A stretch of 64,000 nucleotides of DNA from contig CAMHMO010000001.1 of assembly GCA_946186275.1 (NCBI GenBank), positions 139,735 to 203,734 of the forward strand. Direction: 5' to 3'. A model generated the notes under the pieces. The model was not told the DNA's origin, did no database searches, and saw nothing but the letters and a program-made list of their open reading frames with translations. Positions 3,738-51,590 of the stretch are shown piece after piece. The stretch comes from an uncultured Verrucomicrobiota bacterium. Lineage in GTDB: Bacteria; Verrucomicrobiota; Verrucomicrobiia; Opitutales; UBA9783. Within the stretch, counting starts at the first letter, position 1; every line of letters begins with the position of its first letter. The position numbers and the translations under genes were made by a program.

Positions 3738-4901
3738 TTACAGAAAATACTGACTCAGTTCGCAAAGCACAATAACAACACCGGCAACGCAACAAAACAG
3801 TGCGCTGACGGAATCTTTCCCTGTTTGTTTTTTAAGCAGGTAATGCGGTACAAAAATCATGAAAACCGTTGCAATCGCTCCCGAAAATGCAAACACGCGT
3901 ACAAACAAATTGGGTGAAATAAGATTGATCACCGCCGGAACAAAACAAACGATGAAACGCGCCGTTATCTTCGGTACGAACATGTAGAGTGATTGCAAAA
4001 GACCGATGGCAAATCCGATGGCGGACGTAATAACGGACAATAACGTCAGCAACTTCAACAGCGAACCGATAAACGGATGCGGCGAGGTGTTGCACAAAAA
4101 TTCAATCAACTGTCCGACCGTTATCCGATGCGCCTGCAAACGCTTTAAGAATTCCGCATCGTTGGCGGTAATGTTTTTCAACACGCACATAACCCACAGC
4201 ATGTAAATAATACCGGGAATCGAAATCCCGAGGATGAGTGCACGACTGATTTTCTTTCGATCGCCCGCCAGATCATTGTAAATACGCGGACAAAGCGTTT
4301 GCATGATAAAAGATGTAAAAAGAACCGGCAAAAATCCCGGCAACTCCTTCCAACGCATTTCGGTTTTAATTTCCACACCCGGATAAGAAATTCCGACATA
4401 AACAATCGCTGCCAAAATTGCCGCCAGCAAAACGGTCACGAAAGAGGAATTCAGATTGGCGAAACGCTTAGCATCCAGGTTTAAAATCAAAAACAATCCG
4501 AGTGCACTCAACCAAACCGTTGCATTGTAATTAACGGAACACACACGGCTGAAAGTATCCGAAAAACAGGAAAAATAGCCGACCAGCAATCCGAACGACA
4601 GCAGATAAATACTGCTCAACGTAAGCGCAAAAACACTCTTCCCGACGTGACCGCGACAGATTTTATCCATCGAAGCCGGCTCTTTGTAAAGCGCATTCAA
4701 ATCAACCGCCATCATGGAAGAACGGTAGGCAATAAAGACAAATGTAACGGTCAATAAAAGCAATAAGCCGATATCGAGATTGACGCCTGACAGAGGCAGT
4801 GCCAAAAAACCCGCGCCGATGGAAGTTCCGACCACCAACAGTGTTGCATGGATAAAACGCTTCACATCCCGAGAATAACCCGGAGTACGCTTGCCGGTCA
4901 A
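3738..4901 (-). CDS. HAAAP-family amino acid permease, copy 2
   Basis: ..VKRFIHATLLVVGTSIGAGFLALPL.., LPVLFTSFIMQ. By analogy with the other copies, the true start may be the GTG at 4865. Confidence 0.85.
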   Translation of the reverse strand: MTGKRTPGYSRDVKRFIHATLLVVGTSIGAGFLALPLSGVNLDIGLLLLLTVTFVFIAYRSSMMAVDLNALYKEPASMDKICRGHVGKSVFALTLSSIYLLSFGLLVGYFSCFSDTFSRVCSVNYNATVWLSALGLFLILNLDAKRFANLNSSFVTVLLAAILAAIVYVGISYPGVEIKTEMRWKELPGFLPVLFTSFIMQTLCPRIYNDLAGDRKKISRALILGISIPGIIYMLWVMCVLKNITANDAEFLKRLQAHRITVGQLIEFLCNTSPHPFIGSLLKLLTLLSVITSAIGFAIGLLQSLYMFVPKITARFIVCFVPAVINLISPNLFVRVFAFSGAIATVFMIFVPHYLLKKQTGKDSVSALFCCVAGVVIVLCELSQYFL

Positions 4902-4934
4902 TCTTATAACCGAACCGCCGCTTTTGCACGTATG

Positions 4935-6059
4935 CTACTTCCATTCATATAAAATTTCGCACACCACAATCGCCACGCCGAACAAAAAACAAAACAACCC
5001 GCTGAGGCTTCTTTGTTTCATATGCCGTACCGTCAGATAATACGGCACGAAAATCGTAAAAACAGCCGAAACCATCCCGATGAATGTCAAAATGTGGATA
5101 AACAGATTCGGTGCAAAAAGATTGATCGCGGCAGGCACGAGGCAAATAACAAAACGCGCCGACGGCTTCGGCAATACGTTTTGCAACGATTGCAACAGCC
5201 CGACGCCGTAACCGATGGCGGATGTTACAACCCCCAATGCCGTGACCGTCTTTAAAACCGTACCGACGGAAGCATACGGCAACGTATCGCACAGGAAAGC
5301 AATCAATTCGCCGACCGAAACCTCATGCGCACGCAAACGTTGCCAGAACGCTGGCTCCTGAGAAGCCGTTTTCAGCACGCAAATCATCCACAGCGCGTAA
5401 ATGAGCCCCGGCATCAGACACCCGAGCAACAGAGCCAGCCGAACCTGTCTGCGGCGACCGCCCAAATTGTTGTAAATATAAGGACAGACGGTTTGCATGG
5501 TGAAGGAAGCAAACAAAACCGGCAAAAAACACGGCAATTCCCGCAAATTTGTTTGCGTTTCGATCATTCCCGACGAACATCTTGTCGCAATTTGAAAAAG
5601 AATGAGCAAAATCGCCGCCAAAAAAGCAAAAACAAACAACGAGTTCAGATTTGAAAACCAACGCGTTTGAAGACTTAAAATCAAAAACAATCCGCAGGCA
5701 CTTGCGACAATACCGAGCGAACGATTGACCGGCAAAAACGCGCAAAGCATATCAGAGAAACAGGCGAAGTAGCCCGTCAGGAAACTCAACGACAGCAGAT
5801 ATAAACTTGTTACGGCAACAACAAAAATCGTTTTACCGACATGCATGCGACACAGTTTATCCAACGAAGCCGGCGATTGATAAAATTCGTTCAAATCGAC
5901 CGCCATTACGGAGGAACGATAAGTAACAAAAACGGATACGAGTGTCGCCAAAATAATCAGCGGCACGCTCAAATGCGCACCAGACAGCGGCAGTGCCAAA
6001 AAACCGGCACCGATGGCAGTTCCGATTACCAAAGCCGTCGCGTGGATAAAGGATTTCAC
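4935..6059 (-). CDS. HAAAP-family amino acid permease, copy 3
   Basis: MKSFIHATALVIGTAIGAGFLALPL.., LPVLFASFTMQ; full-length paralog. Confidence 0.85.
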   Translation of the reverse strand: MKSFIHATALVIGTAIGAGFLALPLSGAHLSVPLIILATLVSVFVTYRSSVMAVDLNEFYQSPASLDKLCRMHVGKTIFVVAVTSLYLLSLSFLTGYFACFSDMLCAFLPVNRSLGIVASACGLFLILSLQTRWFSNLNSLFVFAFLAAILLILFQIATRCSSGMIETQTNLRELPCFLPVLFASFTMQTVCPYIYNNLGGRRRQVRLALLLGCLMPGLIYALWMICVLKTASQEPAFWQRLRAHEVSVGELIAFLCDTLPYASVGTVLKTVTALGVVTSAIGYGVGLLQSLQNVLPKPSARFVICLVPAAINLFAPNLFIHILTFIGMVSAVFTIFVPYYLTVRHMKQRSLSGLFCFLFGVAIVVCEILYEWK

Positions 6060-49432: not shown

Positions 49433-49478
49433 ATTTAAGGTATTCCGCGATAAAATTCAGAAGCGTAGCGATTGCAGT

Positions 49479-50249
49479 TTAGGCGCAAAAAGCAGAAACA
49501 AAAATCGCTACGATCAGTATTACATTGATTTTCCAAAACAGTTTGGATTTTTCACTTTTGTCATTACTGTTCATGAAAGGATCGAGGCAGTAAAAAAGTC
49601 CGTAGCATGCATCAACAAGCACAAGACCGACAGTCAGTGAAACGGCAATTAATTTGAAAATATTCGCGTTCCAAATAGCACTCAGTGTAGCGTTTGTAAA
49701 AGAAAGTCCGCCGCTGAACACCATAATAATCGATGCAAAAATACCAAGGACAGCAACAAACTGCTTTTGAATGCCATCGGTTTTGGTTTGGAACTGCTTT
49801 TGGATGCCGTGGGTCTTGCTTTGCAAGTTCTCGTAATTTTTCTGCGACTGTTCGAGCTGTTCTTTTAAAGTCTTCGTTTTGTCTTCATTATCGAGCAACC
49901 GATCCGCAATCTCTTCTGCCGATCGCATTCTCGAATTTTCCAGACAAATATGGTCGAGCAGTTTGTTGAGTACCTTGTAAAAACCTTTGATTTCACTCAA
50001 ACGCTTTTCTTTAATTCTGCTTAAATTTGTTACGATTGTCTCAGGACCAGCTTTGTTGCTTTTTTGAATTTCCTGCAAAGCGGCTGAAATATCGGAATAA
50101 AAGTGCCTGAAGCCACCACGATAAAGTTTATCCAACCTCGACACAACCCCTTTTAATCCTTCATCATTTTTTCGTTTTGAAAGCTCAACAATAATCTCGC
50201 AAAGTTTCTTCCTTTTGGAATTCTCTTCTGTCAAGTCCATCGGTTGCAA
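49479..50249 (-). CDS. Coiled-coil protein with three C-terminal TM helices; candidate toxin/effector partner of the Panacea-domain gene
   Basis: N-terminal helical region with internal repeat T[HD]GIQKQF x2. C-terminal hydrophobic segments FVAVLGIFASIIMVFSGGL, IFKLIAVSLTVGLVLVDACYGLFYCL, INVILIVAIFVSAFCA. Starts 4 nt after the upstream gene. Confidence 0.55.
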   Translation of the reverse strand: MQPMDLTEENSKRKKLCEIIVELSKRKNDEGLKGVVSRLDKLYRGGFRHFYSDISAALQEIQKSNKAGPETIVTNLSRIKEKRLSEIKGFYKVLNKLLDHICLENSRMRSAEEIADRLLDNEDKTKTLKEQLEQSQKNYENLQSKTHGIQKQFQTKTDGIQKQFVAVLGIFASIIMVFSGGLSFTNATLSAIWNANIFKLIAVSLTVGLVLVDACYGLFYCLDPFMNSNDKSEKSKLFWKINVILIVAIFVSAFCA

Positions 50250-50253
50250 GCTT

Positions 50254-50700
50254 TTACCGCTTTTGCGGGCACTTCCTTATCATTTCAGTGGGAATTTCTT
50301 TGTAGGCTCCTCTGCCGTCATCATAAATCTTTGCCCATGCACCGCCTTCTTTGTGAGTTTCCTGAACCATTTCCCACGGATCCAAATTCCTTTTCTCCTC
50401 CACAATGCCGTCGATTAACACTTTATCTTCTTTGTCTATCGATACATTATCTGGAGCATCCAATATCCAAACGATGGTTCTACCGCCGTAAATACGGTAT
50501 TCGTCGTAGACTTTGGGGACAACCGGACCGAACTGCCAAGCTTCAATAGGCTCCGAAAATGCCTTGCGATCCTTTTCTTTTAAAAAGCACTCCTGGATAT
50601 AATATAAAATCTTCTGCAACTGCAAGTTGCTGATAGGATGATCCTCATCGATACATTTTTTCAAAACGTACCTTGCCAAATCGAATGCCGAGTATTCCAT
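50254..50700 (-). CDS. DUF4065 / Panacea (SocA-like) antitoxin-domain protein
   Basis: ISNLQLQKILYYIQECFLKEKDRKAFSEPIEAWQFGPVVPKVYDEYRIYGG matches the family core (..LQKLLYYAQ.. ..EAW.YGPVVP.VY..). Confidence 0.8.
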   Translation of the reverse strand: MEYSAFDLARYVLKKCIDEDHPISNLQLQKILYYIQECFLKEKDRKAFSEPIEAWQFGPVVPKVYDEYRIYGGRTIVWILDAPDNVSIDKEDKVLIDGIVEEKRNLDPWEMVQETHKEGGAWAKIYDDGRGAYKEIPTEMIRKCPQKR

Positions 50701-50904
50701 ACGACTTCCTGTTCGTCAATACATGCGCCAAGTACATTGGCACACCACACGTTGATACTATCACTCAGAAATGTTAGTGTCAGTATATTTTTTTTGAAAA
50801 ACAAGGCGGTAAATTTTTTGGCGGAAGAATGAAAAGTTGTTTATTACTGTGCTTCGCAGCAATATAATCGTTGCCAAAGCACACCGCATCATTTTCAGTG
50901 GGGT

Positions 50905-51273
50905 TGTTCACGGTCGATGCATTCGCTCCGCAAAACGGAGAGGAAAGTCCGGACACCGCAGAGCAGGATTCCTCGCGCAAGCGAGGGACGGGCGTCAAAG
51001 CTCGGACGGCAAGTGTCACAGAAAACAAACCGCCCGCGCAAGCGGGTAAGGGTGAAACGGCGAGGTAAGAGCTCACCGCACAAACAGCGATGTTCGTGGC
51101 AGGATAAACCCAATCCGGTGCAAGACGAAATAGGAAGTCGGGTTGCTCGCCCAAAGACTTCGGGTTCGTCGCACCCGCAAGGGCACGGTGCATTGCGATT
51201 TTTTGCGATGCGTCGCGAGATAAATGAATGCAACCTTTCAAAGGTACAGAATCCGGCTTACCGACCGTGAACA
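50905..51273 (+). ncRNA. rnpB: RNase P RNA, bacterial type A
   Basis: P1 pairing TGTTCACGGTCG (50905..) with CGACCGTGAACA (..51273). Universal blocks GAGGAAAGTCCGGAC, ACAGAAAACAAACCGCC, GGTAAGGGTGAAACGGCGAGGTAAGAGCTCACC, ACAGAATCCGGCTTA. Confidence 0.9.
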
Positions 51274-51590
51274 TTTTTCTTGTGAACATTGAAAGATTTG
51301 CAGTTTTAATGAGCACATCGATGCCGACGGGCTTTGTTTTTTATGCTGTAAGGGAAAACATACCGAAATTTGTATAAATCCCTGAAAAACTCAAAACAGA
51401 TGACATTGAAATTTCGAAAAAATTACAATTAAACAGCCAAACAACGGAGGATATTGAAATTTCACACACCCCTCTCCTGCAAAACCCGTCGGAATTTGAA
51501 AAAACACCACACCGTGTACGGTGAGTACAATGGCGTTTCAAAACCATTAAAAAAATTTACAATCCGTCCCGGACGGCGCATCCTGAAAGC

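Follow-up and report, generated by a model that had tools for sequence, protein, structure and literature searches.

The window, a 64,000-nt stretch of genome G000 (C1:139735-203734) whose lineage falls in an Opitutales MAG from ruminant gut in the species-level genome scan, carries two co-directional open reading frames on the minus strand, with panA at 50254-50700 upstream and panT at 49479-50240 downstream. The genome has a size of approximately 1.02 Mb at about 92% completeness, and its family-level relatives range from 0.7 to 1.3 Mb. It belongs to a gut or rumen lineage of Opitutales with reduced genomes, yet it harbors two PanAT loci. The original prediction placed the pair between rnhC and rnpB, and this location is borne out by the flanks: RNase HII/HIII Pfam families were matched on the rnhC side in syntenic loci, and rnpB was found at 50906-51276 (Rfam RF00010, 228 bits). 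The AT-richness ascribed to the pair is real but modest, with a GC content of about 40-44% for the two genes as compared to about 47-51% in most flanking windows.

Upon inspection of the junction between the two genes, we found that the previously described gap of 4 nt depends on reading panT from a TTG at 50249, which gives an open reading frame of 256 aa (49479-50249), with the panA stop codon (TAA) at 50254-50256. Because all PanT homologs in the alignment begin with the residues MDL and the called product has 253 aa, the true panT start is most likely the ATG at 50240, so that the spacer from the panA stop codon is probably 13 nt in length (50241-50253, minus strand). On the other side of panA, an AGGAAG is located 5 nt ahead of the ATG, and the leader and promoter region of the cassette extends over 50701-50840 (minus strand). 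We tentatively place a promoter at a sigma-70-like site, CTGACA-17-TAGTAT at 50783-50755, which is a consensus match only, in a setting where promoter-like sites are no more common than in shuffled sequence. The second Panacea locus of the genome, on contig 3, is approximately 71% identical to the window locus over a stretch that starts about 140 nt before panA and takes in the 5′ portion of the gene, the CTGACA −35-like box included; because the identity extends this far upstream, the cassette appears to bring its own leader and promoter region. Searches upstream of panA for an operator-like inverted repeat yielded only short, imperfect repeats, and a search for a terminator-like site at the locus found none.

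For the 148-aa product of panA (50254-50700), the earlier identification as a Panacea (DUF4065) protein is well founded, as residues 28-122 matched SocA_Panacea (PF13274) with an E-value of 1.1e-17 and a score of 65.4 bits, far over the cut-off of 25.7 bits, and the match spans positions 1-112 of the 113 in the profile. The protein has no additional domain, including at its N-terminus. It also matched phrog_1281 (E 7e-37) and is homologous to the PanA of a Helicobacter rodentium prophage (28% identity, E 6e-23). Against the NCBIfam SocA equivalog NF047745, which describes a type VI antitoxin, PanA scored 82.5 bits, far short of the cut-off of 190; we therefore ruled out a SocA ortholog and classify PanA as a standalone Panacea antitoxin of the DUF4065/SocA-like family. 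Its partner is conserved, co-directional and separated from it by 13 nt, well inside the 100 nt within which the FlaGs criterion taken from Kurata et al. 2022 accepts a conserved co-directional partner.

The AF2 model of the panT product is all-helical with a mean pLDDT of 73.6, reaching about 85-90 in the N-terminal 150 residues and dropping to about 50-65, a low-confidence range, in the transmembrane part. Residues ~1-90 (49971-50240, minus strand) form a predicted cytoplasmic helical domain in which four helices (6-23, 29-43, 51-64 and 68-82; pLDDT 85-90) make up a small bundle. This domain holds alignment columns that are invariant across the family, among them the motifs FRHxY and KLxDHxxLE, and may be the PanA-binding or regulatory part of the protein. 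A single long helix (residues 91-193) then continues into the first of three hydrophobic segments, which Kyte-Doolittle hydropathy places at residues ~162-182, ~194-219 and ~235-253 (49482-49757, minus strand; windows >= 2.1). TM1 contains LGIFxSII..F.GGLSFT, the motif that is most strongly conserved in the family. With four lysines before TM1, none in loop 1 and three in loop 2, the loop charges fit an N-in topology. Both methods thus support the long helical N-terminal region and the three C-terminal TM helices of the original prediction. The internal T[HD]GIQKQF duplication noted there is likewise a genuine tandem repeat: TRF identified a 33-nt unit just before TM1 (49759-49823, minus strand; period 33, 2.0 copies, 84% matches) encoding KTHGIQKQFQT/KTDGIQKQF. 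It is lineage-specific, however, and not a family signature, as most homologs in the alignment carry one copy rather than two. Among close orthologs the copy number of this 11-aa juxtamembrane repeat (KTDGIQKQFQT) differs; the window protein has two copies, P0005 has an additional copy placed elsewhere, and P0013 has a diverged pair.

The partner protein had been regarded as novel and without a recognizable family, a view that did not hold. It matched phrog_5763 with an E-value of 2.1e-20, and a profile built from 13 relatives retrieved 2,293 representatives at 50% identity with E <= 1e-3 (1,496 with E <= 1e-10), most of them matching over their full length in proteins of 250-310 aa. The species-level genome scan recovered relatives at 25-32% identity in Lachnospiraceae, Oscillospiraceae, Erysipelotrichaceae, Dialister, Desulfosporosinus and Fretibacterium. 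When phage records were searched with tblastn, the protein matched a Mu-like prophage of Helicobacter rodentium ATCC 700285 (E 2e-12); the corresponding BLASTP comparison gave 27% identity over 229 residues (E 2e-19), and the motifs FRHxY, KLxDHIxLE and LGIFxSxIxxFxxGLxFTN are common to both proteins. Alignment of the Opitutales and the Helicobacter/Campylobacter groups with hhalign gave a probability of 99.96% (E 4e-39, 232 columns).

These Helicobacter proteins connect the family to published work. Kurata et al. (2022, PNAS, PMC8832971) named the DUF4065 domain "Panacea" and sorted the toxins paired with it into clusters. Among the T4 rows listed in their Dataset S1 is WP_026943962.1 of H. 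rodentium ATCC 700285, in A|T order at a distance of −20. This accession belongs to the 90%-identity cluster of the prophage protein, and panA and panT overlap by exactly 20 nt in prophage record BK070140, which agrees with the listed distance. The listed T4 rows also include H. rappini WP_104731349.1, which is in a different cluster of the same PanT family and within the Helicobacter/Campylobacter group aligned by hhalign, along with many Firmicutes proteins, and all of them are in A|T order. The window pair likewise has panT immediately downstream of panA, and its PanT has a helical N-terminal region by AF2 and C-terminal TM segments by hydropathy, as does the T4 toxin PanT(Hel. sp.). Based on its full-length homology to the H. 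rodentium and H. rappini proteins listed there, we assign the 253-aa protein (49479-50240, minus strand) to PanT toxin cluster T4. Its link to the experimentally validated member, WP_095295403.1, rests on the authors' clustering together with homology to two other listed T4 members. The assignment shows that the cluster is also present in Verrucomicrobiota, a phylum absent from those T4 rows of Dataset S1 that were examined.

The association of the two genes extends well beyond the window. In 31 out of 35 species-level loci, a Panacea-like open reading frame was found directly upstream of the panT homolog on the same strand, its end coinciding with the partner's start or lying shortly ahead of it. 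Of two further loci, one has the C-terminus of PanA at the edge of its contig and the other keeps only remnants of both genes; the last two end at contig boundaries, which leaves 33 assessable loci, all 33 with panA or its remnant directly upstream. The recurrent adjacency that had been proposed as a check on the original prediction is therefore plainly visible. Pfam recognized PF13274 in eight of nine sampled upstream frames, the exception being a 68-aa fragment of a decayed locus (L037). The same pairing occurs in three metagenome loci (L001-L003) and in three Mu-like Helicobacter prophage loci (L040-L042), and some of these homologs are phage-borne, located before the small terminase gene in L003 and after mor in the Helicobacter prophages. 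No other neighbor is conserved: across 28 loci, 118 Pfam families were found in 115 ORFs, none of them in more than four ORFs, and the surrounding genes are mostly housekeeping genes with an occasional integrase, BRO or phage gene. Such a pattern marks the pair as a self-contained mobile module of two genes. In a Dialister MAG (L022), the PanA-PanT pair is immediately followed by a gene for a HicB-like antitoxin (4809-5366; PF15919, E 1.3e-13), an arrangement that suggests a small toxin-antitoxin island.

We also considered a reading in which the 253-aa protein is no toxin at all but a membrane-anchored structural or signaling protein, such as a holin-like protein or a coiled-coil tether, that merely co-occurs with Panacea. 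The protein has no catalytic domain, and searches against Pfam, NCBIfam and PADLOC assigned it to no family and returned only sub-threshold coiled-coil and TM noise. In PADLOC-DB 2.0 its best match, restricted to a coiled-coil segment, was LeoBC (18 bits, E 2.6e-4), and PanA had no match. A profile search against PDB sequences produced nothing below an E-value of 0.08, and Foldseek comparison of the AF2 model with PDB and BFVD produced nothing at E <= 0.001 and no holin-like relative. The weak coiled-coil matches to Nuf2, tape-measure and SbcC-type profiles that could favor such a role are low-complexity noise below the cut-offs, whereas the obligate antitoxin-then-toxin pairing across phyla and the toxicity validated in a member of the same T4 cluster (PMC8832971) both speak for a toxin, making a purely structural or signaling protein highly improbable. 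We rejected Nuf2, Vma12, ATP synthase b and LeoBC as relatives of PanT, their matches being sub-threshold coiled-coil or TM noise.

Among the characterized systems, the closest is PanA-PanT(Hel. sp.) of Helicobacter sp. 13S00482-2, whose toxin, WP_095295403.1, is listed under T4 in Dataset S1. This toxin has a coiled-coil N-terminus followed by C-terminal TM helices, is toxic in E. coli and is neutralized by its PanA; it depolarizes the membrane without pore formation and without SYTOX uptake, and complex formation has been demonstrated for PanATs (PMC8832971). The window pair shares its gene order, tight spacing, standalone Panacea antitoxin and toxin architecture. By comparison, the window PanT is only about 27% identical to the Helicobacter group, its genes are separated by a spacer where those of Helicobacter overlap, its host belongs to another phylum, and it carries an extra 11-aa juxtamembrane tandem repeat. 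The small T3/T12 (D11) membrane toxins, namely PanT(Esc. col.) and PanT(Bar. api.), resemble the predicted window toxin in being neutralized by Panacea and acting on membranes, and for the T3/T12 (D11) toxins PanA binds directly to the region ahead of the TM segment (PMC10440598). These differ from the window PanT in being small peptides that form large, SYTOX-positive pores, and they fall in other sequence clusters, with no evidence of homology to it.

In the type VI system SocA-SocB of Caulobacter, SocA is a ClpXP adaptor that promotes degradation of SocB, an inhibitor of the replication clamp. The antitoxins of both systems belong to the DUF4065/SocA-like fold family (PF13274), but the partner in the window is an unrelated membrane protein and the window PanA scores far below the SocA cut-off. 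Finally, both families of the window pair are already catalogued among phage proteins, as phrog_5763 for PanT and phrog_1281 for PanA; PHROGs gives no functional annotation for either of them and does not record the PanAT link.

Taken with these precedents, the most probable reading, and one in which we have good confidence, is that panA and panT make up a bicistronic toxin-antitoxin cassette of type II, antitoxin first and toxin second, in which the T4 PanT would depolarize the membrane. That the original prediction of a toxin-antitoxin module with a membrane-acting effector was correct is supported by the homology, the conserved pairing and, by analogy, the published T4 experiments. Both genes would be transcribed from the promoter upstream of panA. 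PanT would enter the inner membrane by its three TM helices, leaving the N-terminal domain in the cytoplasm and the long helix as a link between the two. By analogy to PanT(Hel. sp.), free PanT may dissipate the membrane potential without large pores, and the loss of potential would shut down transcription, translation and replication together. PanA is expected to neutralize PanT by direct protein-protein binding, most likely at the cytoplasmic N-terminal or juxtamembrane part of the toxin. Such binding is modeled on other standalone PanAs, the Panacea core of one of which neutralizes its TM toxin directly (PMC10440598). For the window pair itself, we observed the domain identity, the T4 homology, the conserved pairing and the architecture; its toxicity, depolarization and direct neutralization are predicted from the characterized members, and it may serve in addiction or in phage defense.

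The history of the site could be followed in related genomes. Only 2 out of 41 related genomes carry the partner gene. In two genomes of the same genus (G001 and G004), only about 152-167 nt separate rnhC from rnpB and no pair is found there, with the RNase HIII 92-93% and rnpB 96% identical to those of the window. Since similarity to these empty sites stops at 49453 and restarts at 50871, the cassette is an insertion of approximately 1.4 kb, with an approximate extent of 49454-50870. Target-site duplications and terminal repeats were sought at its borders, where only short, imperfect repeats occur and none is recognizable as either. The occupied rnhC-rnpB site is syntenic in two metagenomic relatives (L001 and L002), and identities between the occupied sites range from 58-68% for PanT and 78-89% for PanA to 89-91% for RNase HIII and 96-98% for EF-P. 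The insertion polymorphism is thus directly observed, and the cassette between rnhC and rnpB was probably acquired horizontally. The empty sites, the presence in so few related genomes, the GC content below that of the flanks and the phage-borne homologs all support its mobility.

Divergence among the occupied sites was strongly uneven. Between the window and L001, in a single pairwise comparison that is indicative only, dN/dS was 0.63 for PanT, 0.26 for PanA, 0.11 for rnhC and 0.02 for efp, with core genes overall at 0.02-0.13. In the alignment of Opitutales orthologs, by contrast with this overall rate, TM1 and TM2 of PanT are nearly invariant.

The second PanAT locus of the genome lies outside the window on contig 3 (L050 2642-3732, minus strand) and was not found in other genomes of the genus. 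Its antitoxin gene, panA2, has an intact frame and encodes a 157-aa protein with 56% identity to PanA. In the panT paralog that follows (PanT2), an A8 run breaks the reading frame in two and the product ends after TM2; the break may reflect either genuine inactivation of the toxin, with the antitoxin left on its own, or a fault in the assembly. At the site orthologous to that of the window in L002 (5001-5773), panT is frameshifted near residue 214, giving a 227-aa product (P0013) without TM3, which is a second, independent truncated toxin beside an intact panA. Two further loci, L037 (3580-4261) and L038 (3805-4336), hold decayed PanAT remnants in which the PanA-like region has no full open reading frame and only the N-terminal ~80-100 residues of PanT are left, which demonstrates erosion of the cassette in some genomes of Firmicutes.

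The high dN/dS of PanT and the frameshifted paralog and L002 copies count against the toxin-antitoxin assignment, as they could reflect relaxed constraint or decay. Taken further, they would make the cassette a decaying selfish element, with a PanT that is non-toxic or only weakly toxic and is kept by inertia in a reduced genome. The remnant loci fit such a view, as does a T4 member from C. difficile (WP_074138355.1) that is given as "not toxic" in E. coli in the listed T4 rows of Dataset S1 (PMC8832971). Yet the panT frame in the window is intact and full-length, all of the family-invariant motifs (FRHxY, KLxDHxxLE, LGIFxSII and FT) are kept in its product, dN/dS is still below 1, and the first two TM helices have hardly changed among orthologs. 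Given this retention, we regard decay into a harmless relic as unlikely for the window copy, and a functional toxin-antitoxin cassette remains our preferred reading.

A second alternative concerns the use to which the cell or a phage puts such a cassette, and thus amounts to a biological role on top of the toxin-antitoxin mechanism rather than a different mechanism. The pair may serve mainly for abortive infection or phage defense or, when carried by a prophage, for superinfection exclusion; PanA would then sense a phage cue and release PanT, and the infected cell would be depolarized. Family members do occupy accessory slots of phages and prophages, as seen at the terminase and mor positions described above, and the pair is patchy among close relatives and its toxin evolves fast. 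Conversely, neither PanA nor PanT has a convincing PADLOC match, and the neighbors at most of the 28 loci are housekeeping genes, not defense islands. On balance, a mainly defensive function, including release of PanT upon a phage signal, seems possible but somewhat doubtful to us.

More speculatively, T4-type PanAT cassettes in reduced-genome gut and rumen Opitutales might be engaged in an ongoing arms race. We raise this idea, which we hold to be improbable, because the toxin evolves much faster than the antitoxin and core genes, because sister species differ by gain and loss of the cassette at the rnhC-rnpB site, and because the toxins have repeatedly been inactivated at homopolymer runs or cut short ahead of TM3. 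Solo panA genes left by toxin knock-out could then act as anti-addiction or anti-phage-toxin immunity. If an arms race of this kind were true, T4 toxins would use their conserved N-terminal helical bundle to sense a trigger, and the bundle would not be a passive dock for PanA.

Overall, the window contains a new, divergent member of PanAT toxin cluster T4 that opens no new mechanism, and it offers a clean example of a chromosomal PanAT insertion polymorphism in a genome of about 1 Mb. Its main value is for annotation: a large family that has no Pfam family and no PHROGs function (phrog_5763) can, by homology, be labeled as T4 PanT membrane toxins, a designation that would cover approximately 2,300 clusters at 50% identity in Bacillota, Campylobacterota, Synergistota, Verrucomicrobiota and phages.
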